Of a DNA stretch of 64,000 bases, positions 3,186-18,378 are shown one piece after another; the first letter of the stretch is position 1; each line of letters begins with the position of its first letter. The stretch is from an uncultured Gammaproteobacteria bacterium (GTDB taxonomy: Bacteria > Patescibacteriota > Microgenomatia > UBA8517). The notes beneath the pieces are model-generated. The model had not been told where the DNA came from. It made no database searches and worked only from the letters and a program-made list of their open reading frames with translations. Both the position numbers and the translations under genes were made by a program. The DNA is taken from the NCBI GenBank assembly GCA_964599625.1, contig CAZRGC010000003.1, positions 3,816 to 67,815 of the forward strand. The letters are read 5' to 3'.

Positions 3186-3310
3186 TATTCAAATTATCAT
3201 TATATATTCATATCACAACAATGTCAGTTTCCAGGCTTTGTTTTTGGTGCAGTCTATTACCACACCTGTTTCCTGGCGTTTGCAGACAATATGCTCTAAA
3301 ATACAGGGTA

Positions 3311-3718
3311 ATGAAATACAAATTACTATTGGCAACTGTAGCCTTCACATTTTCTTTCATGTTCAAACTGGTAGTACCTACTACAGCCCTAGCTGTTAGC
3401 CAGGATGTTACCTGCAACGGAAATCAAGGTGTCGATACAGCAATCGGATGTTTGAACGTTCTGTCCACTCCCGAAGACTTTTTGGGGCAGCTTTTGGGTT
3501 GGGCTGTGGGAATTGGTGGAGGCCTTGCGTTTATCTTGATTGTATATGCAGGATTTATGATCATGACGGCCGCAGGAAATCCGGAAAGACTCAAGGCTGG
3601 TCAGGAGCTTTTGACTTCGGCAATTTCTGGTCTTATTCTTTTGATCTTCTCAATTTTTGTACTCAGATTCATTGGAATTGATATACTGGGACTTAACAAC
3701 TTTGGTTTTGGCGGATAA
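3311..3718 (+). CDS. T4SS pilin-like protein (VirB2/TrbC-like), paralog 1
   Basis: Start re-set to the ATG at 3311, preceded by AGGG. Signal peptide MKYKLLLATVAFTFSF...ALA, then two hydrophobic helices flanking GNPERLKAGQELLTSAISGL. This architecture is shared with 7 downstream paralogs. Confidence 0.6.
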   Translation: MKYKLLLATVAFTFSFMFKLVVPTTALAVSQDVTCNGNQGVDTAIGCLNVLSTPEDFLGQLLGWAVGIGGGLAFILIVYAGFMIMTAAGNPERLKAGQELLTSAISGLILLIFSIFVLRFIGIDILGLNNFGFGG

Positions 3719-3720
3719 AT

Positions 3721-4035
3721 ATGGCAGCACTAAATCTTGATTCAATTGAAAGCAGGGGTCTTGGCACATCCGTTCCCGGAACTCCCGGAGATATAATCAA
3801 TGCAATCCTTCCGTATGTATTTGCTTTTGCGGGAATTGGGCTTTTGGTGTTTTTAATGATTGGAGGGCTTCAAATGATGACGGCCAAGGGTGATCCCAAA
3901 GCAATAGAAGGTGCACAAGCAAAAATAACAAGCGCCCTTATTGGCTTTTTGATTATCATAATTTCATATGTTCTAGTCCAGCTGTTGACTAAAGTGCTTG
4001 GCCTTGGTTCTCTGGGAGGTGTTTTTGGTCCATAA
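3721..4035 (+). CDS. T4SS pilin-like protein, paralog 2
   Basis: 104 aa with a TM-loop-TM architecture and the loop motif KGDPKAIEGAQAKITSALIGF. Confidence 0.6.
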   Translation: MAALNLDSIESRGLGTSVPGTPGDIINAILPYVFAFAGIGLLVFLMIGGLQMMTAKGDPKAIEGAQAKITSALIGFLIIIISYVLVQLLTKVLGLGSLGGVFGP

Positions 4036-4039
4036 CAAT

Positions 4040-4363
4040 ATGAAAATTGATCAACTTTTTCTTGACGGGGTTCCCTCTAAAGCTACATATAGTAGTCTGA
4101 CTGGCATTTCCGGTCTGGTTACACTTTTTGTTAATATCATTTTTGCAATTGCTGGAATTGTCCTTTTGGTCTACTTTGTTGGCGGAGGTTTGGCCATGAT
4201 CAGCAGCGCCGGCAAAAACGATCCCCAAAAAGCAGAACAGGCAAAAAAAACATTAACAAGCGCCGTTATTGGTTTTGTTATAGTTTTTGTCTCCTATTGG
4301 GTAGTCTCACTTATTGGACAAATAATGGGTATCCAAATACTCCAAGGTCTTTTTGCTAGGTAA
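4040..4363 (+). CDS. T4SS pilin-like protein, paralog 3
   Basis: Start re-set to the ATG at 4040 (MKIDQLF...), 4 nt after the previous stop. Loop motif AGKNDPQKAEQAKKTLTSAVIGF. Confidence 0.55.
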   Translation: MKIDQLFLDGVPSKATYSSLTGISGLVTLFVNIIFAIAGIVLLVYFVGGGLAMISSAGKNDPQKAEQAKKTLTSAVIGFVIVFVSYWVVSLIGQIMGIQILQGLFAR

Positions 4364-4412
4364 CAAGCCTCGGACTTGTATTTTTGTCTGTGCGGGTTGT
4401 AAAATTAGCAAA

Positions 4413-4742
4413 ATGCCGAATTTTGGACAAATCAGACCCCCTACTACAGCATTTTCCGGATCGGATGCGGGTACATCAATCGGAAGATTAATTCAGCTTG
4501 GCTTATCGCTTCTGATTGTTGGCGCAGGGCTTTACGCCCTATTCAACTTTGTGATTGCTGGTTATTCTTTTTTGTCCGCAGGTGACGATTCCAAAAAGAT
4601 TTCTGCGGCTTGGGCCATGATCTGGCAAACAGCTCTTGGATTAGCTGTTGCTGCGGGTGCCTTTGTAATTGCTGCTATATTTGGCAAACTCTTGTTCAAT
4701 GATTTTGGATTCCTGTTGAACCCACAAATACCCAACTTATGA
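4413..4742 (+). CDS. T4SS pilin-like protein, paralog 4 (divergent)
   Basis: Start re-set to the ATG at 4413 (MPNFGQ...). Two hydrophobic helices with the loop motif AGDDSKKISAAWAMIWQTALG. Confidence 0.5.
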   Translation: MPNFGQIRPPTTAFSGSDAGTSIGRLIQLGLSLLIVGAGLYALFNFVIAGYSFLSAGDDSKKISAAWAMIWQTALGLAVAAGAFVIAAIFGKLLFNDFGFLLNPQIPNL

Positions 4743-5113
4743 CGCCAGACAATCACATTGCAGTAAGCCTTGCCCCAGCAGGTGGGTTTAAGGGTCTTGG
4801 TACAAGCTCACTTGCTAATCCGGGCAACGATGCCATAAATATCTTTGCAAACTTTCTTTCTTCCGTTATTGGCCTCATGACAATCATTGCATTTATTTGG
4901 TTTACGTTCAGATTTATTACCTCGGCGATTCAGCTCATGTATGCCGGAGGAGACAAGCAACGCTATGAAACAGCAAGAGAGCAAATGAAATATGCAATTA
5001 TCGGAGTTGTGGTCGTTGTGGCTGCAATATTTATTATCAACCTGGTTGGAACATTCATAGGCATTCCAAATATATTGGATGTCGCGGGTATGTTTGAACT
5101 TATAACTCAATAA
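4739..5113 (+). CDS. T4SS pilin-like protein, paralog 5
   Basis: ATGA start/stop overlap with the upstream gene. Loop motif AGGDKQRYETAREQMKYAIIGV. Confidence 0.6.
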   Translation: MTPDNHIAVSLAPAGGFKGLGTSSLANPGNDAINIFANFLSSVIGLMTIIAFIWFTFRFITSAIQLMYAGGDKQRYETAREQMKYAIIGVVVVVAAIFIINLVGTFIGIPNILDVAGMFELITQ

Positions 5114-5461
5114 ATGAACAACTTAATAGCGGCAGCATCTGGAGTAATCGGAAACCCTGCTTTGGGGGCACTCGAAAACAACACTGGCGAAAGCTTTTTC
5201 CAAAAGGCTATCCCCGCTTTTGCCAGTATGGCATTTTTGATTGCCTCGATCATATTCTTTTTTATGATAATTACCGGATCGATCCAATGGATCTGGTCAA
5301 ACGGCGACAAGCAGGCTTTGGAGACTGCAAGAGCCAGAATAACCAACGCTCTGATAGGTATGGTGCTTTTGTTTGCCGTATTTGCATTAATCAAAGTAAT
5401 AGAGACATTCTTCCACATACATATTCTGACTCTTGACATAGCGGCATTGAGGATTCGATAA
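5114..5461 (+). CDS. T4SS pilin-like protein, paralog 6
   Basis: Loop motif SNGDKQALETARARITNALIGM. The C-terminal TFFHIHILTLD is nearly identical to paralog 7. Confidence 0.6.
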   Translation: MNNLIAAASGVIGNPALGALENNTGESFFQKAIPAFASMAFLIASIIFFFMIITGSIQWIWSNGDKQALETARARITNALIGMVLLFAVFALIKVIETFFHIHILTLDIAALRIR

Positions 5462-5468
5462 TATACAT

Positions 5469-5798
5469 ATGAACAATCTTTTGGCACAGATTAATTTACA
5501 ACCGGGCGAAGGAACCCAGTTTGCTCCTTTGGCCAAACTCACCATTCCTGGACTTATTTCTGCACTCATCAGACTCACAGTAGTTGTTGCAGCCATAGTA
5601 TTTTTCTTTATCTTGGTAATTGGTGGTATTAAATGGATTGCTTCAGGTGGAGACAAAGCTCAAACAGAATCAGCCAGAAACCAAATCACAGCCGCTTTAG
5701 TAGGACTCGTAATAGTTTTCGCAGCTTGGGCTATCGTTGCACTTATCAACACATTCTTCCACATCGATATATTCTCGCTCGTTATCCCCTCAGTCTAA
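5469..5798 (+). CDS. T4SS pilin-like protein, paralog 7
   Basis: Loop motif SGGDKAQTESARNQITAALVGL and C-terminal TFFHIDIFSLV, pointing to a recent duplication of paralog 6. Confidence 0.6.
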   Translation: MNNLLAQINLQPGEGTQFAPLAKLTIPGLISALIRLTVVVAAIVFFFILVIGGIKWIASGGDKAQTESARNQITAALVGLVIVFAAWAIVALINTFFHIDIFSLVIPSV

Positions 5799-5835
5799 TT
5801 TCTACTCAAAATAGTCTTGGTATAGCTTAAATTCT

Positions 5836-6144
5836 TTGTTTGTAATAAAATTATTGGGTATGAACGGAATTGCAACCATTGCCGACTTGGGAACAATTTT
5901 TTCTAATATTGTTAAGTCGTTTTTGACATTTGCAGGTATAGTGCTTTTTGTTTTTCTTTTGGTTGGTGGGTTCAGATATATTACTTCTGGGGGTGATCCA
6001 AAAGCAGTTGACGCAGCGCAAAAGACAATTACTTACGCAATTGGCGGCCTTGTTGTTATACTTCTTTCCTTCCTGGTTCTGGTGCTTATTGGGAACATAA
6101 CAGGTGTCACATCAATCACCGAATTCAACATCATGCTTAGATAA
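5836..6144 (+). CDS. T4SS pilin-like protein, paralog 8
   Basis: Loop motif SGGDPKAVDAAQKTITYAIGGL with a TM-loop-TM architecture. The start may be the internal ATG at 5860. Confidence 0.55.
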   Translation: MFVIKLLGMNGIATIADLGTIFSNIVKSFLTFAGIVLFVFLLVGGFRYITSGGDPKAVDAAQKTITYAIGGLVVILLSFLVLVLIGNITGVTSITEFNIMLR

Positions 6145-6156
6145 ACACAATGACAG

Positions 6157-8832
6157 ATGCAAAAATCAAGGCCAAAATGCCTCAATATTCATACAGCAAG
6201 TAAAGCTTTCTACTCTTTACTGGTCCTAGTTTTGGGTGTGTTTGTTGTGGCTGTAATGCTTCAAATAAAAACAGTTATGGCAGAGGATGCTATTCCAAGG
6301 CCAGGAAACGTTCCTTGTGAGACTGAAAAAAACCCAGAATACAGCAGCGGCCGACCTTATCAGGCTTCTCCTTGTGGGGATGCGCCCAAAACTTATTGGT
6401 GCGGTAATGCAGTTGTTATATATCTAAACACAGTTAAGTGTCCCTATAACGGCAGTCCCACTTGCACACCGACGGTAACACATTACGAAAAGAAAATAGC
6501 TGTCGAAATGCTTGATGCAGAACTCCCAATCATGGGAAACACCGAATTAACATCTAATAGCGTTAATGGCACGGGTACAATGGATGACGGAACCAAACTA
6601 AACGAATATATGAGCTGGTACCTTAACGGGGTAAACGACAAGGCCGAGTACCCCGAAAGCAGCATAGATCAATCAGTTAATATGTCCGGACCCTTAAGAA
6701 GGCTTTTACCCGGTGTGATACAAGACGCAGCAAGAGTAGAAATCATCAAATCCCCCGACGGAGACACATCAAACGTTGACGATGAGACCGGCGAATCCAC
6801 TCCAGAAAAAATGAATCACAACAATATTGTGGTTTGTGCAAAAGAAGGTGGTGGTGGTCTTCTTGGTTGGATAGTGGATCTTTTTAATGTAGGGGCAACT
6901 ACTCCGCTTGAATGCTACAAGGGGGGCGGGTCGGGAGCACAAGGTGACGTTTATAGATTGAAGGACTGGAACGGCAATTTGACAATACTTAACGCTTTGT
7001 CGAATACAGTAGTACGCACAGCAGTAAACGCCTACCAAGTTTTGTTTCCGTTTGCCTCACTGGGTGAGATAGAAGCATCCATTGGAAACCATTGGAATCT
7101 CAGACGCCCTCCCCTTCCCTGGGACGACGGTACCGGTAAACCATTCGCAAGAAACGTTGACTATCAAAAAGCATACTACGAGTGGCGGGGGCAAACCTGT
7201 ATGATTATTCCGGTTATTGATAGACTTGCCTGTTTCGAAAACCTTCTAGTTCCAAATAAATATGCAGATTTGTTCCCATATATTCCTCTTGCAAACACCA
7301 GAGATATACCCGGAGCACACACTGTCCTTCTTGCTCATGTAAGTGCGGCAAAAGCAGAAATATTGGAGTCTGATTACCAAATAATCAAGCCGGCTTTTCG
7401 CTTGTGGATTCCACACGCGGCTGAAAATTTTGAACTCACAAGTCTTCTTAAAAAGACTTTTGTTCCCAAAGCTAAAGACGGTGCTAGCTCTACAGCCCCA
7501 GCAGCAAGCCTGAGCGATGTCGAAATAAACAACGCGCCATGCAAGATATTAAATTCGAGAAGTAATCCGGGCGACGATGTAAACTTTGAAAATCCAAAAA
7601 AATGGATTGAGGTGGATGTGCAATACGATGTTGGAGAAATTCAATGTAGTGAGCCGCATGAAGAGTGCAAGGAAGACACAAATCCCAGTAGCCCCACTTA
7701 CGGACAAACTATTTGCAAAATGGTCGCAACCTGTGAGTCAGAAGTTTATGCAACAATACCCACGGTAGGCAAGACTCCATACGCAGATGAGATTTGGAAT
7801 AACTCCGTGGCAGGCCCGGACTCCGTGTTTAGAAGAATTTACCCCAAAACAGGTGCCAACGCCCCTGTTTCGTGTATTGCCGACCTTCCGGCCGAATCCA
7901 AAGCAACATATAAAATCACAGATCCAAGCAGCGAAGGGATCAGACTTACACAAGTAATTCTTCCTGATGATAGCCGCATGGGATCGTTTGCCAACAAGAC
8001 GGAGTCTTTGGAAGCAAAAGTGTTTTATCCCCATTACGGAGGTGTATTGGAATACTTTTTAAACGGTATCCAAACAGCGCTTAGACCCCAAGGTTATAGC
8101 GATTCGCAACCAATGAGTGGTCAATCATGCAGCAACATTCAATGTGGCGAGCTTCCCGATCTTCCCAAAGCATCGGGTTCTTGCCAACTTGGCGGTGTCA
8201 GTTCCCGTGTGGGTAAAATTCCAAAAGCTTTAAGCGACATAATTTCTGCTGCCGCACAAACATACAAAGTCCCCCCCAACCTATTAATCGGGCAGATGTT
8301 TGGTGAAGGACTTTTTAATCCGGGAAGATACGAGTGGACCGAGGAAAATGTTAAAAACTGGGCAACGTGTACAAAAATTCCGGGATGTAATGAGACAGGA
8401 GATGATCACTTTATGGGATTCAACGGAACAGTTTTTGAACGAACAGTCCCTAAAATAAAAGCAGATTTACAAAAAATCGATCCCAGCAGGAAAACATTCA
8501 GTCAGTGTAATCTTCTGGATGCAATTTATGCTGCCGCTTATAATCTTCACGACAGTGCTGACGGCGGAGGCGGGCTTCCCGCGACATGTTTCGGAATAAA
8601 ACTTAGTGCACCAGTACCATCATCCTGCTCCTGGACTGATGAACAATACGAATCAGCAATCAAAGTTTACGAGAGTGGTTATACAAGTATGTGTATGACG
8701 GTTGAAAACGGTTGTGCAATAGGAGGCTTGGCAGCTGCCTGCCCAGCAGGCGATACCTGCGAAACAATAAGCAATAGATATTCAAGTCCAAGCCACAACG
8801 CCTGTGTTTGGGACGTGGCACACGGCAACTAA
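6157..8832 (+). CDS. Large Cys-rich secreted/membrane-anchored protein with a C-terminal lytic-transglycosylase (SLT family 1)-like domain; putative VirB1 analogue
   Basis: N-terminal signal-anchor helix. More than 40 Cys. The C-terminal region reads AAQTYKVPPNLLIGQMFGEGLFNP ... HFMGFNG ... AAAYNLHD, which parallels SLT motifs I-III (E-S/GxxNP, GLMQ, AYNxG). Confidence 0.5.
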   Translation: MQKSRPKCLNIHTASKAFYSLLVLVLGVFVVAVMLQIKTVMAEDAIPRPGNVPCETEKNPEYSSGRPYQASPCGDAPKTYWCGNAVVIYLNTVKCPYNGSPTCTPTVTHYEKKIAVEMLDAELPIMGNTELTSNSVNGTGTMDDGTKLNEYMSWYLNGVNDKAEYPESSIDQSVNMSGPLRRLLPGVIQDAARVEIIKSPDGDTSNVDDETGESTPEKMNHNNIVVCAKEGGGGLLGWIVDLFNVGATTPLECYKGGGSGAQGDVYRLKDWNGNLTILNALSNTVVRTAVNAYQVLFPFASLGEIEASIGNHWNLRRPPLPWDDGTGKPFARNVDYQKAYYEWRGQTCMIIPVIDRLACFENLLVPNKYADLFPYIPLANTRDIPGAHTVLLAHVSAAKAEILESDYQIIKPAFRLWIPHAAENFELTSLLKKTFVPKAKDGASSTAPAASLSDVEINNAPCKILNSRSNPGDDVNFENPKKWIEVDVQYDVGEIQCSEPHEECKEDTNPSSPTYGQTICKMVATCESEVYATIPTVGKTPYADEIWNNSVAGPDSVFRRIYPKTGANAPVSCIADLPAESKATYKITDPSSEGIRLTQVILPDDSRMGSFANKTESLEAKVFYPHYGGVLEYFLNGIQTALRPQGYSDSQPMSGQSCSNIQCGELPDLPKASGSCQLGGVSSRVGKIPKALSDIISAAAQTYKVPPNLLIGQMFGEGLFNPGRYEWTEENVKNWATCTKIPGCNETGDDHFMGFNGTVFERTVPKIKADLQKIDPSRKTFSQCNLLDAIYAAAYNLHDSADGGGGLPATCFGIKLSAPVPSSCSWTDEQYESAIKVYESGYTSMCMTVENGCAIGGLAAACPAGDTCETISNRYSSPSHNACVWDVAHGN

Positions 8833-8876
8833 ATCTCTTTTAAAAAAACAAATTTAGTTTTGGTATAATATCTTTA

Positions 8877-10676
8877 ATGCCTTTCTTTCATAAAACTCAC
8901 ATGTTTTTCAAAAAGTTTTTAGTTTCGTTTATGGCTGCCTGGATACTCGTTTTGTCCGTTGCGCCTTTTTCAATAGCAGCAGCTGCCACAGCCACCCCAG
9001 CCCCAACAGGAACATGGTATAACTCAAGTTTTCAGGATTGGTATTCCAAAGTCTACGACGACAGCAATCAAAGCGAAATTTTTGGCGAAAGATATACAGC
9101 CGCACAAGTACAGTGGGTTGTTTACGGACTTCTATCGTTCCTTGTAAACCAGACCAGCAACCAAAAACTTCTTAGTTGTTTGTTCAAGAATTCAGCAAAC
9201 CTGAACGCATGCGCAAGCTTACTTACCTATTCAGAAAAAGATCTTCAAGAACTCGCAAACAGACCCAAAGTAAAAGAGCCATCACTTGCCAGTCTTGTTT
9301 TTTCCAAAGAAAGGTCTTTTTCCGGAATTAACTATGTAAGGGAAAAGGTAGATAATTTTAGTCTTGTCCCCGAAGCTCATGCCCAAACAGTTGGTTTTGG
9401 CTTTAACGCCCTTAAGCCTGTTCAGGCAATGTGGCAAACTTCAAGAGACTTGGCATTTGGACTTTTTGTTTTGGCTGCGATCGTTTTTGCATTCATGATC
9501 ATGTTTAGAGTAAAAATATCTCCACAGGTGGTAATTTCGGTTCAAACGGCTCTTCCCAAGCTTATAGGTGCGTTGATATTGGTTACCTTCTCCTACGCCA
9601 TTGCAGGGTTTTTGGTTGATTTAATGTATGTAGTTTACGGATTGGTGGCGCTTTTGGGTAAAGGCTTTATTCCCTTTGGTGGCGCTGGTGTTTCTCCCGC
9701 AACAGTTTTTGAATTTATGACAGCAGGAAGAGTTGGTGGAGCAGGTGCAGGAATTGAATTAGGGCTCATGGGGCTTTTGTTTATATATCTTGTACTCCTC
9801 CCCATTTCGTTTGTAATAACACTGTTTTTGACGATTGGTGTTTTGGGAGCAGCTGTAATTGGACTTGTTGGAACAATTTTGGCACCTCTTTTTGCAGGCC
9901 TGGGAACAATAATGGCCTTGGTTGCAATTGTTTTGGTAATCATTTTGATCATAGTAATTATTTGGCAATTGGTAAAAATCATTTTCGGACTCCTTAAGGC
10001 ATACACAAACATTATTCTTTTGACAATTTTCGCGCCTGTGCAAATAGTTGCGGGTGTTTTTATTCCAAGTCTTGGTTTTGGTTCTTGGCTTAGAAGTTAT
10101 GTAACCAACTTGGGAATATTTGTATTAACAAGTGTTCTTATATTTTTCTCTTTTGTATTTTTGGAGCAAGGAGTGGCCCTCGCATGGGAAGGACTTGGTA
10201 GCAACATCGGCGCAGGGATACTTTCGTTTATTTTTGGTCAATCAACAATCGCAAATCTTGGAGGTTTCTTTGTAAACAATTCTGCATGGCCACCCCTTTT
10301 GAGTTCCACGGCCTCCACAGGCGGCGGCACAGGTCTTTTGATGCTTGGTGTTAGCTTTGTACTCTTTACGCTAATTCCTAAAGCCACAGAGGTGTTGCAA
10401 GGCCTTATGAGTGGCAGACCGTTTGCATACGGAACCGCAATCGGTGAGGCTTTTGGGCCGGTTGCACCATTTGCTGAGTATGGGAAGGGTGCTGCAATGA
10501 GAGCTGCCATCAGAAAGGGTGTTCAGATGGACAACGAAGGCAGATTGCCAAGCGGTGGTATGTGGACATATTTGAAAGAGGGTCTAAGAGATGCCGCAGA
10601 GCAACAAAGAATGTCTACTGTAAGAGGAAGAGACACAGACAATACTTCCGTCAGACCTCCAAGCGAGAGAAGATAA
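8877..10676 (+). CDS. Polytopic inner-membrane protein (at least 8 TM), VirB6/TrbL-like candidate
   Basis: 599 aa with a signal-like N-terminus, many long hydrophobic helices with Gly-rich packing, and a C-terminal charged tail. It sits between the lytic enzyme and the ATPase genes, the usual VirB6 position. Confidence 0.4.
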   Translation: MPFFHKTHMFFKKFLVSFMAAWILVLSVAPFSIAAAATATPAPTGTWYNSSFQDWYSKVYDDSNQSEIFGERYTAAQVQWVVYGLLSFLVNQTSNQKLLSCLFKNSANLNACASLLTYSEKDLQELANRPKVKEPSLASLVFSKERSFSGINYVREKVDNFSLVPEAHAQTVGFGFNALKPVQAMWQTSRDLAFGLFVLAAIVFAFMIMFRVKISPQVVISVQTALPKLIGALILVTFSYAIAGFLVDLMYVVYGLVALLGKGFIPFGGAGVSPATVFEFMTAGRVGGAGAGIELGLMGLLFIYLVLLPISFVITLFLTIGVLGAAVIGLVGTILAPLFAGLGTIMALVAIVLVIILIIVIIWQLVKIIFGLLKAYTNIILLTIFAPVQIVAGVFIPSLGFGSWLRSYVTNLGIFVLTSVLIFFSFVFLEQGVALAWEGLGSNIGAGILSFIFGQSTIANLGGFFVNNSAWPPLLSSTASTGGGTGLLMLGVSFVLFTLIPKATEVLQGLMSGRPFAYGTAIGEAFGPVAPFAEYGKGAAMRAAIRKGVQMDNEGRLPSGGMWTYLKEGLRDAAEQQRMSTVRGRDTDNTSVRPPSERR

Positions 10677-10743
10677 CACAACCTTTAGTGCCTCTGCTTT
10701 GTTTTTCCAACCAAACCCATATTGTCAGATTAAATTAATGAAG

Positions 10744-13700
10744 TTAAAAATTCTTCTTTACGTTGGTTATCGCCGCTGACACAGATTCCTGCTGATCTGT
10801 ACCATGCTTAATTACAGACCTAACAATTCTTTCACCTTGCATTACTGTGAGCAAGGCAACTTGAGCTGATGTGCCAGGATAATTGTGAACCTTCCTTACT
10901 TTTGTTGGCATGTCCAAAAGAACATTGATCCATTTGGTAACATCTTGCCTTTGGAAACTAGCAAACAACTTGTCAATTTCTGTTTCAGTTGGAGTTTTAC
11001 CCATGAGTCCAGCGCTTTTAATTGCTGCCAACATCTTGTTTTGTGCAAACGAAGATGCACGCAGCACGCCGTCTGACCAATTAAAAATTCTTCCACCAAG
11101 CCTACCTCTTTTACCCAACTCTTTATCAGCTGTTCCGGAAGGCTCGCCCAAGAAGTGTTTTTCGTACTCGGGTTGTGTAGATCTGTTGAATTCGTGTGGT
11201 GTAACAATTGGACCAAGCCATCTTTCCATTTGGTCATGAGAGACTCTAATGTAGCTGTATTTGTATCTGTCCATATTCTCCCAATTTAGCTTTGAATTTC
11301 TCTCTCCACGGAGCCTTCTGTGCCAAACACTCACGCTTCTACCGTCCACAGTTCTGGCTGATGGAGAATCCAAAGTCATACTTCTCCAAAAACCAAGAGG
11401 TAACGAGGTCGGCATGAACATAGGCATTGTCAAATAGTCACTCTTGGGATTTCCGGGTTCTGCCAAGAATGGTGTCATGTAAGACCACATGTTGTTGTAA
11501 ATAAAATCGCGGACTCTTGTGTCAAATTTTCCATAATATTGCTCTTGGATACCATTTTTTCCTTTCATATACACTTTTCTAGCTACCATCTTCTCTAAAG
11601 GATTGTCATCAGACAGGATCCCTCCACGTGCTGTAATTTTTCCATCTAGACCGATGCCCAACCTCCTCAAAAGATCAGGGTCGTTCTTTGCTATTACCTC
11701 AACTTTTGGCCTCCAATAAGGTGGTTGCTCGAGCCATTTGTCCCTATATTCACCTATTGTTGGAAACACCAAAACACCAGAGCCCCTGGTTTCTGCCATT
11801 ATGTCGTAGTCGATCATGTGTCTTGCCAGATAAACAACCGTTGTTACATCATGATTTTCATAGATACTCCCCATCTCCGATCTCCTTTTTACTCCAAGTT
11901 CGGCAGCAGTTTTACCCTCTCCTGTAATCTCTTTCCATTCACCTTCACTTACATTCTTTTTGTAAACTCGCTGCTCAACATACTCATCGCCATTTGAGAG
12001 ATCGACAACTACTTTGAAATTGGGGTTTGAAGCCAACGCCCTCCAAACAACTTCATCTGTTTTCTTTTTGTAAGTTTTTCCGCCACCCAGAATCACATAC
12101 TCTTCACCGGTTCCTGTTTCTGTAAGAATTGGTTTCTTTTTAACCTCTTCGTAATTCCAAGTCCAACCGAGATCTCCACCGGAAAGAACACCTTTTTCAA
12201 TATTTATTGTGCTTTTTATAACTTGTTCAGCAAGTCTTGCATATGGCGATTCTGTGTCGTCTAAGGCTTCCCATTGTTCTGATCTCTGAGCAGCTCTATC
12301 TTTTAGCTCGCCAGCCAAAGCTTTAATTCTTGCAAGTCTTACAGCAGGATTTCCTACAGCCATAATTTCCTCCATTTTTTGCTCATAATATGCAGCATTT
12401 AGAACCAGTTGCTGCATTCTTGATTCAAAAGCTCTTATAGCCAACTCGTCGTTACGGGGCATACAAAACGGATTTAATATTTTCTCTTTTACAGTAATCA
12501 TTGTTCCGTCCGCAGCTTTGTATTGGAATTCACCAACTTCACTCACTGTACCGTCAGCATTAACTGTTTCCATCGCCATGACTTCCTGTAAAAACATAAA
12601 TGTTTCAATGTTTTCTACTACCGCATACCTCTCACCCTCTTCTTTGTCTGCGTCGTTTTCGGTCCAACTACCACCATCGAGAAGATCCAAATTCTTCTGT
12701 CCCACAGCAACGGCTTTATATAGCCATTTTATTGACGCATCTTGTTGTTCAACTGCAACCTCTCGCATACCAAGTCTTTCTACTGGATTACCATTCTCAT
12801 CTCTTGATTGTCTGAGGAGTCTGTCAGGCCTTTTTGAAAGTGTCTTTTTGACAAGTTCGCGCTGTTCATCCGTAAGATCAGCCCCCCTAAGTTTGTCTTT
12901 ATAAAGCCTAATAAAATCTTGAGCCACAAGTTCTGTGTGCGGGCTTCTTATCCACTGAAGCATGAGTTCTCCGTCAAAGTACAGTTCAAAAGCTGGCCCC
13001 ATTCCTTCTACAACCCTGGCGTTGGCATTTGCCCACAACATATCTCTTTTGAGCATCTTAAGAAGTGCTGTGGTTTCAGGATTTTTTGCTCGATCGGTGT
13101 TTCTGAGCTTGTCAGTAACCTGTTCCAAAGCTTGTTCAAAATACTGCATCGCATACCTGGAGTCGTATGGGTATGGGTTTTTGAGATGCTCAAGATATCT
13201 GTTTAATCCTCCCAACTCGTCCATGGTTGTCTGGATGATGTTTTCGTAAGCCTCAGCTGCTCTTTCTCTTGCTCCTTCGAGCCTCTTTTCTCTCTCGTTC
13301 GGTTCCTCAATCAAATAATCTGCAACCTCGGCAGCAAATTTATCCCCACTTTCGACAGCGTCCCAATCATCTCCACCCTTGGAACCCTTGATCATAACCT
13401 TTTCGTTTTTAGCTTTTTTGTCATCAACTGCTTTTCTTAGTTCTTCTTGTTCGGTTTTGAGAGTGTCTCTCGCATCCTGAAGGCTAGGGCTTGCCTCAAC
13501 TTCAACCCAATCAGTACTCTGTTCAATCTTGTTCCTTAAAAGTCTTACTTTAAATATCATTTGATCCAAGTCTCTGGTGTCGTTTTCAATAAGCCCAATC
13601 TGCTCGGCTGCCATAAGGAATTTGGGCATATATGAATATTTTCCTTCCTCGTTCCTCCTCGCCAATCTCATTTCATGCTCCATTCTCTCTTTGTTGGGGT

Positions 13701-13941
13701 CTTTATCATCCTCTTTTCCATGCTGCATTCTTATATCGGGAAGGTTTGCTTTCATCATTGGCTGAGACTCGGCAAAATTCCTGGCTGCATCGACTTGAGA
13801 TTTACCCAAAGCAACAGCATTGCTGTCGATAGACGAAATTTGATTAGCCGCAAAGTCTTTGGCCTGGGTACCCCCCAGATTCATCATTGCCCTAACTGAG
13901 GGTGATATGTTTGGATCGTTTGGAACAGATTCTCTTGTCAT
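10744..13941 (-). CDS. Large (1065 aa) soluble hypothetical protein, no recognisable domain
   Basis: Long uninterrupted ORF with no signal peptide or TM helix and charged/acidic-rich composition. It is divergent to the T4SS operon and convergent with the VirB6-like gene. Confidence 0.5.
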   Translation of the reverse strand: MTRESVPNDPNISPSVRAMMNLGGTQAKDFAANQISSIDSNAVALGKSQVDAARNFAESQPMMKANLPDIRMQHGKEDDKDPNKERMEHEMRLARRNEEGKYSYMPKFLMAAEQIGLIENDTRDLDQMIFKVRLLRNKIEQSTDWVEVEASPSLQDARDTLKTEQEELRKAVDDKKAKNEKVMIKGSKGGDDWDAVESGDKFAAEVADYLIEEPNEREKRLEGARERAAEAYENIIQTTMDELGGLNRYLEHLKNPYPYDSRYAMQYFEQALEQVTDKLRNTDRAKNPETTALLKMLKRDMLWANANARVVEGMGPAFELYFDGELMLQWIRSPHTELVAQDFIRLYKDKLRGADLTDEQRELVKKTLSKRPDRLLRQSRDENGNPVERLGMREVAVEQQDASIKWLYKAVAVGQKNLDLLDGGSWTENDADKEEGERYAVVENIETFMFLQEVMAMETVNADGTVSEVGEFQYKAADGTMITVKEKILNPFCMPRNDELAIRAFESRMQQLVLNAAYYEQKMEEIMAVGNPAVRLARIKALAGELKDRAAQRSEQWEALDDTESPYARLAEQVIKSTINIEKGVLSGGDLGWTWNYEEVKKKPILTETGTGEEYVILGGGKTYKKKTDEVVWRALASNPNFKVVVDLSNGDEYVEQRVYKKNVSEGEWKEITGEGKTAAELGVKRRSEMGSIYENHDVTTVVYLARHMIDYDIMAETRGSGVLVFPTIGEYRDKWLEQPPYWRPKVEVIAKNDPDLLRRLGIGLDGKITARGGILSDDNPLEKMVARKVYMKGKNGIQEQYYGKFDTRVRDFIYNNMWSYMTPFLAEPGNPKSDYLTMPMFMPTSLPLGFWRSMTLDSPSARTVDGRSVSVWHRRLRGERNSKLNWENMDRYKYSYIRVSHDQMERWLGPIVTPHEFNRSTQPEYEKHFLGEPSGTADKELGKRGRLGGRIFNWSDGVLRASSFAQNKMLAAIKSAGLMGKTPTETEIDKLFASFQRQDVTKWINVLLDMPTKVRKVHNYPGTSAQVALLTVMQGERIVRSVIKHGTDQQESVSAAITNVKKNF

Positions 13942-14064
13942 CTTTGTGTAGCCTGCAAATTATATAACAATACCACCCCAACTTCAAAGCTGTCGGGTTT
14001 TGACCAAAAACCTATAATGTGAGATAATTGTGTCTGTTCAAATTTTGCACATTAGGAGTCTCAG

Positions 14065-14337
14065 ATGAGAGATTTTTTGAGTAAGTTCAAACCCTGGCAA
14101 TTGGTTGTGTTGGCCATCTTGGCAATACCAGTGCTTGTGGCGGTTCTTATCATACCGGGAGGACTGCTTTTCGCCGGACTTTTGCTTGCCGGGGTGGTTT
14201 CCTTTTTCCGAATGAAGTCGTCAGACGGCAGGTCAAAGGTTTTTTGGACTTTAATTTTTATCCTCAGCATAGTTTTTGGCATAATTTTGTGCTGTGGATC
14301 GGCTTATTACGTTGTCTACGCTTTTTTTGCCCAATAA
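14065..14337 (+). CDS. Small 3-TM membrane protein, hypothetical
   Basis: 90 aa, almost entirely hydrophobic helices. Followed by an intrinsic terminator. Confidence 0.4.
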   Translation: MRDFLSKFKPWQLVVLAILAIPVLVAVLIIPGGLLFAGLLLAGVVSFFRMKSSDGRSKVFWTLIFILSIVFGIILCCGSAYYVVYAFFAQ

Positions 14338-14358
14338 AACACAAACACTTTTGGTTCC

Positions 14359-14405
14359 GCCCTTGCGGTTACTTTTTTTGTAACACACCGCAAGGGCTTT
14401 TTTTG
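14359..14405 (+). terminator. Rho-independent terminator
   Basis: GCCCTTGCGGT (14359-14369), a 17-nt loop, then ACCGCAAGGGC (14387-14397) as a perfect 11-bp inverted repeat. It is followed by TTTTTTTG. Confidence 0.6.
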
Positions 14406-14434
14406 TGAAAAAGGCTTCATCTTGCACCGTACGC

Positions 14435-14464
14435 TTCACGCAGTAATCTAATCATAGGTATATT
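14435..14464 (+). promoter_or_regulatory. Candidate sigma70-like promoter for the PrgI-like/VirB4 operon
   Basis: TTCACG, an 18-nt spacer, then TATATT, 20 nt upstream of the ATG at 14485. It sits directly after a terminator. Confidence 0.25.
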
Positions 14465-14484
14465 TATTACCTTCTACTGCCAAC

Positions 14485-15618
14485 ATGGAACAACATCCAA
14501 TTCCACAACAAATAAGTTCCTATCAATTCCGTTTGGTGGGAGATATGACCCTCAAACAGTTTTTCCAACTTGCGGGTGGATTTTTGGTGGCACTTATTTT
14601 TTATTCTTCCCCACTTATTGGAATTATCAAATGGCCTTTTGTAATTGTATCCGCACTTCTTGGTGTCGGTCTTGCTTTTTTGCCTTTGGAAGAAAGGCCG
14701 TTGGAAAAATGGATTTTTGCTTTTTTCAAAGCAATATATGCACCAACCGAATTTTACTGGGAAGAAACAAAAACACCTGTTAAATTTTTTATGGATGAGC
14801 CCGCAAGCAGTGTGAATGCAAACACAGCAGCTCCACAAGAAAAAGCCTTGCAAGACTATCTTTCTGTTGCAAATCAAAGAACTGGCTCATCTGCAAAAAT
14901 GGAAATGGCTGAACAGGGATTTTTAGCAACGCTTACCGGAATATTTACAGGAGTGGTTTCGCCTGTAACAACTGGCATACCTCCAGCACCCGCACAGTCA
15001 GCGGCTCCAACCCCGGCAGTCACACCCTTAACCATGCCAAAAGAACCCATTAGCGCACCACAGGCACCCGTTGAACAAAAAGAAATACAAATACCCCAGA
15101 CTGCTCCTATAAAAGTTGTCTCCAATATACCTCATTTGGTAATCGAAGAAAGAAAAGCGGATCCACTAGCACCAGAACCACAAATAACAACACACCAAGT
15201 TGCACCAACTATGGCGGGTGAGGAAATGATTTCCACCAAACAAGCTTTGTTCTCAATCGACGCTGCCCCACCAAGCCCTCCAACAATTCCAAACGTTGTT
15301 GTTGGACAAGTGGTAGATGAAAATAGAAGAATAGTCGAAGGTGCGATTATGGAAATACGAGACTCTGGCGGCAGACCAATACGAGCACTAAGAAGTAACA
15401 AGGCTGGTCATTTTATAACCGTTACTCCACTTGAGATAGGTAAATACGACGTTTTAACAGAAAAAGATGGCTTCGATTTTACAGCAATATCTTTTGAAGC
15501 AACGGGAAACTTGATTCCTCCAATCCTTGTTCAAGGCAAACATAGTACTCAGCAGCCTGCGCAGGTTACCCAGGCTCCACCAATAGTTTCTGCAAACCCT
15601 GTAGCAACGACTAACTAA
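14485..15618 (+). CDS. PrgI/VirB3-like membrane protein fused to a Pro-rich linker and a C-terminal beta-sandwich (CarboxypepD_reg-like) domain
   Basis: N-terminal YQFRLVGDMTLKQFFQLAGGFLVALIF plus a second TM helix resembles PrgI-family (VirB3 analogue) proteins that precede VirB4. Middle region is PA/PQ-rich. C-terminal VVGQVVDENRRIVEGAIMEIRDSGGRPI...GHFITVT...GKYDV follows the transthyretin-like fold pattern. Confidence 0.45.
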   Translation: MEQHPIPQQISSYQFRLVGDMTLKQFFQLAGGFLVALIFYSSPLIGIIKWPFVIVSALLGVGLAFLPLEERPLEKWIFAFFKAIYAPTEFYWEETKTPVKFFMDEPASSVNANTAAPQEKALQDYLSVANQRTGSSAKMEMAEQGFLATLTGIFTGVVSPVTTGIPPAPAQSAAPTPAVTPLTMPKEPISAPQAPVEQKEIQIPQTAPIKVVSNIPHLVIEERKADPLAPEPQITTHQVAPTMAGEEMISTKQALFSIDAAPPSPPTIPNVVVGQVVDENRRIVEGAIMEIRDSGGRPIRALRSNKAGHFITVTPLEIGKYDVLTEKDGFDFTAISFEATGNLIPPILVQGKHSTQQPAQVTQAPPIVSANPVATTN

Positions 15619-15624
15619 CCAACT

Positions 15625-16332
15625 ATGGCATTAAACCCACCAAACTTATCAAAACTTCCCAAAATTCCATACCTTTCCATTCCGGATAAACCTATTACTG
15701 CAACCAGCCAAGACCATGTACCAATTGCAGACATTACAAATGATATTTTAATTTACAAAGACGGAGGCGCCGCACTTGTGATGGAGTCAACATCTCTCAA
15801 TTTCGGACTTTTAAGCGAAAAGGAGCAACAGGCCGTAATCGCAGCATATGCAGCAATGATTAATTCGCTTTCTTTCTCTGTTCAGATTGTTGTAAGAACA
15901 TCCAGAAAGGACATAAGCTCTTATTTGTCATTTTTGGATGAACAAGCCAAAAAACTTACACACCCCCTCTTGGTGAGGCTTATGGCCAACTACAGAGGTT
16001 TTATTACCGAGTCTGTTAAGAAGAAGAACGTTCTTGGGAAAAGATTTTTTGTGATTTTGTATCTTTCGCCATTAGAACTGGGGGTCGGCAAATCAGTACA
16101 AACACTTACTAAACGTGGCGGGCCACTTCCCTACACAAAATCTTATGTTATTAAAAAAGCTAAGATTACTTTGTATCCCAGGCGGGATCACTTGGTTCGC
16201 CAGGCAGGGCGTCTTGGTATAAAATTCAGGCAACTTACAACACCGGAGCTTGTCAATCTTTTTTATACTATCTACAACCCCGAAAGACCCGCAGTTAAAA
16301 AAGAACCCGAGGTTGTAATGGACAAAAAATAA
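15625..16332 (+). CDS. VirB4-family protein, N-terminal segment (split gene or frameshift)
   Basis: ADITNDILIYKDGGAALVMESTSLNFGLLSEKEQQAVIAAYAAMINSLSFSVQIVV matches the conserved N-terminal VirB4/TraC/PrgJ motif (D.I..KDG....LEV...NF.L.S..EQ). It ends at a poly-A tract 4 nt before the next ORF, which is in a different frame. Confidence 0.5.
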   Translation: MALNPPNLSKLPKIPYLSIPDKPITATSQDHVPIADITNDILIYKDGGAALVMESTSLNFGLLSEKEQQAVIAAYAAMINSLSFSVQIVVRTSRKDISSYLSFLDEQAKKLTHPLLVRLMANYRGFITESVKKKNVLGKRFFVILYLSPLELGVGKSVQTLTKRGGPLPYTKSYVIKKAKITLYPRRDHLVRQAGRLGIKFRQLTTPELVNLFYTIYNPERPAVKKEPEVVMDKK

Positions 16333-16336
16333 AAAA

Positions 16337-18376
16337 ATGAATATCAAACTACCATTCATGAAACAGCAGAATCCGGTACCAGCCTCTGCTTTGGGTGTTG
16401 ACCCTATGCAAAACACTCAACCACCAATGGTGCTACAAACACCACCCACAATCGTTCCACCTACTACAAACCCTCCCGTCGCGCCACAAACACCAACAAC
16501 TCCTCCACCTACAAATCCATCGTTACAAAACCCACAAACCTCATTTGCACCGACACCTGTGCAACAAACACCTCCAAACACACAAGTTCAACCAACCCCT
16601 ACTGCCGTAAAGACTGCTAAACAAAAATATACAAACCCGGGTTTGGCTGTAACCCAAGGAGCAAATGTGTTGGATGTTATTGCTCCGCAATTGGTTGAGG
16701 AGGACTTTGATTACATAAAAATAAACGATGTTTATTTTCGAACCATATTTGTTGGTGGCTATCCCAGATTTGTCGCCCCGGGTTGGCTTGAGCCTGTAGT
16801 TAATTTTGATTCAAGCCTTGATATTTCTTTTTATGTTTATCCGGTAGATGGAAAATCTGTTCTGGACGATCTAAGGAGAAAGATCGCAGAAATGGAAGCA
16901 GAAATATCAACAGACATCGAACGCGGAAAAATAGTTGATCCTTCTACCTCAGCCAAATTGGAAGATGCCAGAGCTCTTCAGGAACAACTTGTTAAAGGAA
17001 TAGAACGTTTTTACGAATTTTCTTTTTACATAACAATTCCGGCAAATACTGTCGATGAACTAAACCATGTTACAAAACAAATTGAATCACAGTTGGGATC
17101 GCTTTTGATTGTTTCCAAACACGCTCTTTTAGACCAAGAGTCAGGATTTTTGTCTACCGCACCCTTTGGAATGGACAGATTAAACATCACAAGGAATATG
17201 GATACGACTTCTGTAGCAACAACCTTCCCTCTTACCTCTACAGAACTTTCCAGCGACCGCGGAGTTTTGTACGGTATAAATTCTCAAAACGAGTCCTTCA
17301 TTATTTTTGACAGATTTAGTCTCCAAAACAGTAACATGGTTATCTTTGCAACCTCAGGTGCCGGAAAGTCATTTTTTGTTAAGTTGGAGGCTTTAAGATC
17401 TTTGATGACAGGAACCGAAGCAATAATTCTTGATCCTGAAAACGAATACAAACCACTCGCACAAGCGGTTGGTGGTGAATATATTTCTTTCTCCTATAAC
17501 TCCGATGCCAAAATCAATCCTTTTGATCTGGCCCAGATACGTGAAGAGGGCGAGAACCAGCTTGGGTTGAAAATTTTATCCTTACATTCACTTATGAAAG
17601 TTATCATGGGACAAATATCTCCCACCCAGGACGCACTTTTGGACAGAGCACTTGTTATGACCTACAGAAACAAAGGAATCACCATGGACCCTGATACCCA
17701 AGGAAAAGAACCCCCTCTTATGGAAGATCTATACAAAACCCTTATTGGAATGGAGGTTCCAGATGCACTTGATTTAGCAGCACGTATCGAGAAATTTGTA
17801 AGAGGAAGTTTTGTGGGAATTTTTGATAAACAAACCAACATCAATCTAAACAATCCTTTTACTGTTTTCTCAGTTAAAGACATGCAAGATGCAATACGCC
17901 CGATTGCAATGTTTATCATCCTTGATTACATTTGGACTCGCGTCAAAAAGGACATTAAAAAACGAGTCCTTTTAGTGGATGAGGCTTGGCACATGATGAG
18001 ATATCCCGACACCGCTCAATTCTTGTGGAGCGTTGTCAAAAGAGCACGTAAATATTATCTTGGGCTTACAACAATCACCCAAGACGTAGAGGACTTCTTG
18101 GCACAAGACATAGGCAAGGCAATTGTCACCAACAGCTCCATGCAGGTGCTTCTGAAACAATCACCTGCTGCAATTGATAAAATCGGGGAGGTGTTTTATT
18201 TGAGTCAGGGAGAAAAACAGCTCCTTCTTGCAGCCAATGTCGGAGAGGGAATATTCTTTGCAGGACCACACCATGCCCCAATAAGAGTGGTTGCCTCGGA
18301 AGAAGAAAATAGATTGATAACAACCAAGCCAGAAGAGGTTGCTAAATTTAACCCAGCCGCGTATAACACCAAATAA
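16337..18376 (+). CDS. virB4: VirB4/TraC/PrgJ-family T4SS ATPase (middle and ATPase domains) with an N-terminal Pro/Thr-rich linker
   Basis: YFRTIFVGGYPRFVAPGWLEPVV (conserved VirB4 N-domain motif), Walker A IFATSGAGKSFFV, Walker B RVLLVDEAWHMM, and a downstream TTITQDVEDF motif. Confidence 0.8.
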   Translation: MNIKLPFMKQQNPVPASALGVDPMQNTQPPMVLQTPPTIVPPTTNPPVAPQTPTTPPPTNPSLQNPQTSFAPTPVQQTPPNTQVQPTPTAVKTAKQKYTNPGLAVTQGANVLDVIAPQLVEEDFDYIKINDVYFRTIFVGGYPRFVAPGWLEPVVNFDSSLDISFYVYPVDGKSVLDDLRRKIAEMEAEISTDIERGKIVDPSTSAKLEDARALQEQLVKGIERFYEFSFYITIPANTVDELNHVTKQIESQLGSLLIVSKHALLDQESGFLSTAPFGMDRLNITRNMDTTSVATTFPLTSTELSSDRGVLYGINSQNESFIIFDRFSLQNSNMVIFATSGAGKSFFVKLEALRSLMTGTEAIILDPENEYKPLAQAVGGEYISFSYNSDAKINPFDLAQIREEGENQLGLKILSLHSLMKVIMGQISPTQDALLDRALVMTYRNKGITMDPDTQGKEPPLMEDLYKTLIGMEVPDALDLAARIEKFVRGSFVGIFDKQTNINLNNPFTVFSVKDMQDAIRPIAMFIILDYIWTRVKKDIKKRVLLVDEAWHMMRYPDTAQFLWSVVKRARKYYLGLTTITQDVEDFLAQDIGKAIVTNSSMQVLLKQSPAAIDKIGEVFYLSQGEKQLLLAANVGEGIFFAGPHHAPIRVVASEEENRLITTKPEEVAKFNPAAYNTK

Positions 18377-18378
18377 TT

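Follow-up and report, generated by a model that had tools for sequence, protein, structure and literature searches.

The 64,000-nucleotide stretch of contig CAZRGC010000003.1 analyzed here (the window) is chromosomal DNA of a Patescibacterium (candidate phyla radiation, CPR) and carries an MPF-FATA-like type IV secretion system (T4SS) locus of the kind described for Patescibacteria. Related contigs are labeled as Patescibacteria metagenome-assembled genomes (MAGs), and the adjoining dnaN and dnaA genes place the locus on the chromosome, beside the replication origin. In order, it comprises bPH and SpoIID genes on the reverse strand; eight pilin-like genes and the genes for an 891-aa and a 599-aa protein on the forward strand; the gene for a soluble 1065-aa protein on the reverse strand; a divergent operon on the forward strand that includes PrgI-like, TrsD-like, and VirB4 genes; and dnaN and dnaA on the reverse strand (Table 1). 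Here, we focus on the 1065-aa protein, which a preliminary description had called an orphan and a candidate translocated effector, toxin, or cytoplasmic component of the T4SS.

The 1065-aa protein and its family

The open reading frame (ORF) starts with ATG, ends with a stop codon at 10744-10746, and, as had been claimed, is the largest of the cluster and lies on the strand opposite to its neighbors; the next largest encode 942, 891, and 679 aa. At the window's GC content of ~42%, stops make up ~6% of random codons, and 1065 open codons have an arithmetic probability of ~1e-29 per start. Compared with the 97%-identical protein of another strain (locus L017), it shows 33 amino acid changes, with dN 0.016, dS 0.32, and dN/dS 0.049. 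The open length and this ratio argue against a chance ORF: this is a real gene under purifying selection. Its start codon agrees with the family, whose members open with M-P/T-D/E-x-M/V-x-P-E/N.

The protein had also been described as free of transmembrane helices, a signal peptide, a Walker motif, and any recognizable motif, and this was borne out. Its maximum Kyte-Doolittle hydropathy over 19 residues is 0.92, and no window exceeds 1.6, which indicates the absence of a transmembrane segment or signal peptide; all other large non-ATPase proteins of the T4SS locus have a membrane segment. A motif scan found no Walker A, HExxH, CxxC, or HxH motif. Pfam, PHROG, and NCBIfam gave no matches to the protein, and the PDB, searched by sequence and by family profile, returned only noise (E ≥0.66). 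Pfam gave no match on 57 family members either, whether to a housekeeping domain or to T4SS-DNA_transf / TraG-D_C. No paralogue was found elsewhere in the window.

A word-indexed search recovered six homologues (38-97% identity), and two more such searches with alignments as the query returned the same six proteins only; a metagenome scan with alignment A2 likewise found six loci only. An exhaustive HMM search among 1.84 billion representative proteins identified 80 clusters (50% identity) at E ≤1e-3, of which 30 reach E ≤1e-30; the distant members are mostly 750-900 aa long. The label "orphan" is thus apt in that the protein belongs to no named family, but not in the sense of lacking relatives.

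When the window proteins were mapped onto related loci, all 13 distinct loci with any flank (L001-L007, L009-L012, L016, and L017) had a homologue in this slot and with this orientation, its gene transcribed away from PrgI-like/TrsD/VirB4 and toward the orthologue of the 599-aa gene. Where the contig is long enough, the pilin array and SpoIID flank one side and dnaN/dnaA the other; dnaN/dnaA adjacency is also seen in L003, L004, L005, L006, L018, and L019. Among all homologues with flanking DNA, none lies outside this Patescibacteria T4SS locus type. The preliminary description had asked for remote-homology searches and for a comparison of related genomes, with orthologs away from a T4SS or a clear housekeeping domain as signs against a secretion role. 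Neither sign appeared, and the PDB profile and Foldseek searches found no relative. The family is therefore a fixed part of the chromosomal, oriC-proximal T4SS locus of one Patescibacteria (CPR) lineage.

Predicted structure, conserved core, and N-terminal tail

The AlphaFold2 model of the 1065-aa protein, built from a 61-sequence alignment, has a mean predicted local distance difference test score (pLDDT) of 88.6 and a predicted TM-score (pTM) of 0.83. A short form of 749 aa (P0032, 24% identical), modeled independently, reached pLDDT 91.4 and pTM 0.91 and has the same order of secondary structure elements. Foldseek found no match at E ≤0.001 for the full-length model in the PDB and BFVD or for the 749-aa model in the PDB; the best matches, at E 0.04-0.1 and TM-scores below 0.2, were generic helical proteins. 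Neither sequence nor fold comparison linked the protein to any T4SS subunit.

The protein has two modules, the disordered N-terminal tail and a large, compact alpha/beta body, and both of its halves hold conserved elements. In addition to NPYPYDSR, the N-terminal core contains the invariant Q415 and WxWxY (593-597), and the C-terminal core contains WENMD (887-891) as well as the near-invariant basic helix. The 749- and 774-aa homologues lack the beta-rich insertion between the cores. Among the 57 members, positions conserved at 75% or more are mostly P, G, W, R, and K; Q415, R393, K944, R945, L948, and R951 are among them. No enzyme-like constellation of Asp, Glu, His, Cys, or Ser is conserved among these members, and with no conserved catalytic-type residues, the proposed toxin finds no support.

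Two known classes of T4SS-associated protein were considered and rejected. As a VirD4-type coupling protein (T4CP), the protein would be expected to show features that we did not find: there is no N-terminal transmembrane anchor, no Walker A/B (P-loop), no RecA-like or all-alpha T4CP domain in two confident models, whose Foldseek matches include no P-loop structure, and no Pfam match. This disposes of the earlier suggestion of a VirD4 substitute insofar as it meant a related ATPase. As a MOB relaxase, it lacks an HxH motif, a Pfam or NCBIfam match, and a PDB match by sequence or fold.

A positively charged C-terminal secretion signal had also been suggested. Instead, the C-terminus is an ordered 44-residue helix (pLDDT 86-91); the net charge of the last 30 residues is +2, which is also the family median, and 16 of 57 members are at or below 0. 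The N-terminal half of the protein is acidic and its C-terminal half basic. We dropped basicity of the C-terminal half as a family trait, since the C-terminal core has a pI above 7.5 in only 26 of the 57 members. In distant members, a hydrophobic helix (hydropathy up to 2.2) aligns to residues 957-977; we rejected a transmembrane reading in favor of a buried helix because it has only ~13-15 hydrophobic residues and lies inside the helical bundle. Cysteine depletion was uninformative as a mark of export, as VirB4, TrsD, DnaN, and GroEL are also without cysteines.

The first 80 residues form a tail with pLDDT below 50 at residues 1-8, 22-38, 43-45, and 60-77. Three motifs are recognizable in it: MP(D/E)xM(S/T)PE (MPDxMxPE) at the extreme N-terminus; AA(K/R)NFxQP (AAKNFxQP), in one or two copies; and (P)EW(K/R)SxxPDIRMQ, in the 1065-aa protein 60-QPMMKANLPDIRMQ-73. 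MP[DE] is present in 21 of the 68 full-length members. PDIRMQ was not found in any other ORF, whether of the window or of the related loci retrieved.

Locus L019 is of the same type, with VirB4 83%, TrsD 77%, PrgI 58%, the 599-aa protein 48%, and SpoIID 65% identical to those of the window. In the same slot, it encodes an 860-aa protein (P0082, 10001-12583) in which all three tail motifs are kept, but no similarity to the family was detected over residues 131-860: the motif alone is aligned by hhalign, phmmer gives E >0.06, and Pfam and the PDB return nothing for this body. In L004 and L005, VirB4 is only 72-76% identical, yet the slot proteins are recognizable at E 1e-17 to 1e-25. The P0082 body has either been replaced or diverged past recognition. 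Since the tail persists on an unrecognizable body, it is a module able to outlive the body. The start called for P0082 probably lies 30 codons too early, since the MPEDM sequence is reached only at residue 31.

Among the proteins of the locus, the 1065-aa protein diverges fastest: across orthologous loci, its identity falls from 53% to 24% and its BLAST bits per residue from 1.01 to 0.11 (compare Table 1), and whole subdomains have been inserted or deleted across the family. Its dN/dS is similar to the 0.02-0.06 of its neighbors. Between the window (6157-21207) and a near-identical strain (L017/L018), dS is mosaic: it is ~0 in the PrgI-like, 213-aa, dnaN, and virB4 genes, 0.13-0.32 in the 942-aa, 599-aa, and 891-aa genes and the gene for the 1065-aa protein, and 0.05-0.98 between 100-codon windows within the latter. 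This mosaic suggests that strains have recently undergone homologous recombination within part of the T4SS locus.

The surrounding T4SS locus

Table 1. Features of the T4SS locus and of the 1065-aa protein, with amino acid identities of neighboring proteins across the same orthologous loci.
Feature	Position	Strand	Identity	Basis and remarks
Eight small VirB2-type pilin-like genes	3221..6144	+		PF18895 in 7/8; orthologous arrays in related loci
891-aa protein, one N-terminal hydrophobic segment, 29 cysteines	6157..8832	+	28-50%	Probably extracytoplasmic; same operon as pilins
599-aa polytopic protein, VirB6 position, convergent with 1065-aa gene	8877..10676	+	33-54%	8-10 hydrophobic segments
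1065-aa soluble protein, coding sequence	10744..13941	-		ORF list, translation, dN/dS, family alignments A1-A5
C-terminal conserved core, codons 676-1065	10747..11916	-		Alpha/beta, then helical bundle; basic here, pI 9.3-9.8
Near-invariant helix K944-R945-x-x-L948-x-x-R951	11089-11112	-		In C-terminal core
Beta-rich insertion of long-form clade, codons 601-675	11917..12141	-		Alignment occupancy 0.17-0.38
N-terminal conserved core, codons 226-600	12142..13266	-		Mostly helical, acidic, pI 4.8; occupancy, conservation, DSSP
NPYPYDSR, codons 255-262	13156-13179	-		In N-terminal core
Long helices	residues 82-251	-		Model; 126-225 are a clade-specific insertion
N-terminal disordered tail, codons 1-80	13702..13941	-		Low pLDDT; motifs common to distant members
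PDIRMQ, codons 68-73, preceded by QPMMKANL	13723..13740	-		20/68 full-length members
Sigma-70-like promoter match TTGAAG-17-TATAAT	13959..13987	-		Upstream of ATG; consensus scan, 10/12 matches
Palindrome GGTTTTTGGTCAAAACC	13996..14012			Between two divergent promoter-like sites; kept in window, L017, L002
90-aa two-transmembrane protein	14065-14337	+		First gene of divergent operon 14065..21855
PrgI/VirB3-like	14485-15618	+	46-66%; 70% in partial match, L012	PF12666 E 5e-5, under Pfam cut-off
TrsD-like	15625-16332	+	65-81%	NF041427 E 5e-7, under cut-off
VirB4 ATPase	16337-18376	+	72-88%	PF19044 E 2e-29, PF12846 E 5e-10 (TraG P-loop / AAA_10)
942-aa membrane protein	18379-21207	+	26-35%	Orthologues in L001, L019 carry Peptidase_M23
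213-aa single-transmembrane protein	21214-21855	+		Last gene of divergent operon
dnaN (21852-22970) and dnaA (23261-24625)	21852..24625	-		Pfam

Around the 1065-aa protein, the positions and orientations of the flanking genes are as first described, and VirB4 is well supported by Pfam, while the PrgI-like and TrsD-like assignments both fall under the curated cut-offs; orthologues of the PrgI-like and TrsD-like proteins in related loci have PF26593 TraC-like and weak PrgI matches. The convergent 599-aa protein has orthologues in the same place in every locus that reaches that far. Its "VirB6-like" label reflects position and topology, and neither Pfam nor a PDB profile search supported VirB6 homology. 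The large ORFs of the window all have other annotations, with no coupling protein or relaxase among them, and Pfam detected no domain of either kind in them.

A promoter-like site precedes the gene for the 1065-aa protein; the match is kept in L017 and L002, and its -10 element also in L007. The gene thus appears to be its own transcription unit, as judged by this conserved pattern match. The palindrome GGTTTTTGGTCAAAACC may be an operator for both the T4SS operon and this gene. No terminator hairpin was found in the 67-nt convergent gap (10677-10743).

Several neighbors have features of their own. The 891-aa protein has a cysteine content of 3.25%, far above every other protein checked, and no Pfam, PHROG, or NCBIfam match; it could be extracellular and rich in disulfides, as an adhesin or a T4SS component. 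The 90-aa protein is confined to the closest relatives (L002, L017, and L018); its dN/dS of 0.35, based on 7 changes, is the highest in the locus. The 942-aa protein has no Pfam match in the window, and there is a weak HExGHH-type metallopeptidase match near residue 857-883. Loci L007/L008 carry two PF05635 genes (23S_rRNA_IVP, four-helix-bundle; 2407-2820 and 3911-4297) flanking the PrgI-like gene, with no counterpart in the window. Beyond dnaA, the window encodes yidC, leuS, groEL, metG, tsaD, and an AddA-like helicase. Two related contigs, L004 (CAYMZX010000003.1) and L002 (CAZQCI010000143.1), are deposited in MAGs named Gammaproteobacteria and Nitrospiraceae. They are probably mis-binned, because both carry the Patescibacteria-type locus and L004 also has dnaA and dnaN 65% and 49% identical to those of the window.

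T4SSs of Patescibacteria are without a relaxase or nearby coupling protein and have no known substrate (PMC10633639, PMC12102498); neither their transport cargo nor its direction is known (PMC10633639, PMC12102498, PMC12857230). Their loci have pilin arrays and often lie near dnaA, and in S. epibionticum, the single species examined in this respect, transposon sequencing (Tn-seq) showed the T4SS to be essential for epibiotic growth (PMC10633639, PMC12102498, PMC12857230). The T4SS locus of Southlakia epibionticum ML1 is SEML1_0006-0019 (Wang et al. 2023, PMC10633639), and Patescibacteria T4SSs have been surveyed by Quinonero-Coronel et al. (2025, PMC12102498). The window locus resembles the ML1 type in its VirB4, its putative TrsD-like and PrgI/VirB3-like proteins, its polytopic VirB6-position protein, its VirB2-type pilin array, its large peptidase-bearing membrane protein, the lack of a nearby relaxase or coupling protein, and the adjacent dnaA/dnaN. 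A soluble ~750-1100-aa protein encoded divergently between the PrgI operon and the VirB6 gene, however, is not in the component lists of PMC10633639 or PMC12102498. At the same position, ML1 has SEML1_0011 (998 aa, same strand, with a permease KEGG orthology assignment and an ARM-like domain) and SEML1_0012, as compared by description. The locus type is already known, if poorly understood; the soluble family is undescribed and, as far as testable, novel in fold.

Possible roles of the 1065-aa protein

It is very probable that the 1065-aa protein works with the T4SS in some way, because its gene is embedded in the locus, its family is found only there, and it is the sole large non-ATPase product without a membrane segment. 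The earlier general idea of a T4SS-linked translocated protein or new cytoplasmic component thus survives, and the strict synteny strengthens it. We consider it highly improbable that the protein has no functional tie to the T4SS and is, say, a structural or cell-cycle protein whose gene is merely held in place by a conserved gene order near oriC. Everything from bPH/SpoIID to dnaN/dnaA is syntenic, including non-T4SS genes, so synteny alone is no proof of function. However, the gene has T4SS genes on both sides rather than lying at their edge, and the family was found nowhere outside this locus type; it is limited to ~80 clusters, although housekeeping genes of the same genomes are widespread.

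We tentatively read the protein as a client, or substrate, of the T4SS, with less than even confidence. The disordered tail would dock it to the conserved cytoplasmic entrance formed by the VirB4, TrsD, VirB3-like, and VirB6-position proteins, in a locus that has no coupling protein, and the body would then be exported or translocated as a pilot, a host-acting factor, or an extracellular part of the apparatus. For the only large non-ATPase without a membrane segment, any action outside the cell would require exit through the T4SS. Its separate transcription, fastest divergence, tail motifs, the P0082 case, the lack of enzyme-like conservation, and a machine with no known cargo are all consistent with a client. 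Several observations weigh against it. A canonical T4SS C-terminal signal is absent, although the C-terminus is the usual place for such signals. Only ~30% of members have the tail motifs, and many 750-800-aa forms are without both. The tail on a different body is a single example that could reflect extreme divergence rather than replacement. A machine subunit would just as typically be present once per locus and in strict synteny, and the low dN/dS, no higher than that of the neighbors, gives no sign of an arms race or positive selection. Finally, docking of the tail and export of the body are both inferred.

The closest functional analogies are with two kinds of T4SS effector. CagA of the Helicobacter pylori cag T4SS is large, encoded in the locus, separately transcribed, of a lineage-restricted fold, and equipped with a disordered, motif-bearing region. 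The 1065-aa protein shares these traits by analogy only: it has no sequence or fold similarity to CagA, its secretion is inferred, and its motifs are N-terminal, whereas the motif region of CagA is C-terminal and acts in eukaryotic cells. In the X-Tfe effectors of Xanthomonas, VirD4 is bound by the XVIPCD, a folded domain of ~120 aa at the C-terminus. The likeness, again an analogy only, is a recognition module joined to a variable body, as with the tail on P0082; here, however, the module consists of N-terminal linear motifs, the locus has no VirD4, and one alternative body is known.

Nearly as likely as a client is a cytoplasmic, non-ATPase adaptor or scaffold beneath the VirB4/TrsD/VirB3-like/VirB6-position complex that gates the channel or recruits substrates. 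Such a protein might fill the place of the missing coupling protein functionally, not by homology: a VirD4-type T4CP would also act at the cytoplasmic entrance, and since the locus has no recognizable T4CP, a replacement is conceivable. Alternatively, it might supply in trans the large hydrophilic domains of the "extended VirB6" proteins of other Patescibacteria. Those domains (PMC12857230) are, by description, also large, soluble, of unknown role, and tied to a T4SS channel protein, whereas the 1065-aa protein is a separate polypeptide encoded on the opposite strand, beside a VirB6-position gene. That neighbor is short (599 aa) compared with SEML1_0011/SEML1_0013 (~1000 aa, with ARM-like soluble domains), which fits the idea of domains supplied in trans. 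The single copy in all 13 loci, the soluble, compact, and confidently modeled folds, the strong purifying selection, and the lack of a coupling protein or relaxase among the window's large ORFs also suit a scaffold, and the near-invariant basic helix KRxxLxxR could be a binding surface. A scaffold is harder to reconcile with a protein whose rate of evolution is several times that of its presumed cytoplasmic partners and whose gene is transcribed apart from all machine genes. Nor does it resemble a T4SS subunit in sequence or fold, and the unrecognizable body in L019, where the VirB4 and TrsD components of the machine are 77-83% identical, is difficult to square with a precise fit. An improbable further option is a nucleic-acid- or phospholipid-binding factor for T4SS-mediated uptake. 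Where the import channel opens into the cytoplasm, its basic C-terminal half would bind the membrane, or else take over or escort RNA or DNA from the host. The contrast between a strongly basic C-half (pI 9.3-9.8) and an acidic N-half (pI 4.8) and the invariant or near-invariant K944, R945, and R951 point this way, as does a 2026 preprint in which a cultured Patescibacterium is reported to take up host RNA and to have tubular structures, which may be T4SS pili (10.64898/2026.06.21.733656). However, the link between the T4SS and RNA uptake is only proposed there, the basic character is not conserved across the family, and no nucleic-acid-binding domain or fold was detected by Pfam (the protein and 57 members) or Foldseek.

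If the protein is a client, a more specific, and unlikely, form of that reading is that the essential Patescibacteria T4SS has its missing cargo in the slot protein, which would serve as a pilot or act on the host and be recognized by its N-terminal linear-motif tail. Once delivered to the host bacterium, it would set up or hold open a conduit through which the epibiont draws host material such as RNA, and the body could be swapped from one lineage to another, P0082 being an example. Whatever its role, the family, which published component lists of these systems do not include, comprises ~80 clusters and has two confident models with no structural relative, and the 1065-aa protein offers a concrete candidate, open to testing, for the cargo of the CPR T4SS or for its substrate-recognition step. 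Should the cargo reading be true, its tail would be a new kind of T4SS targeting signal, one that works without a coupling protein.

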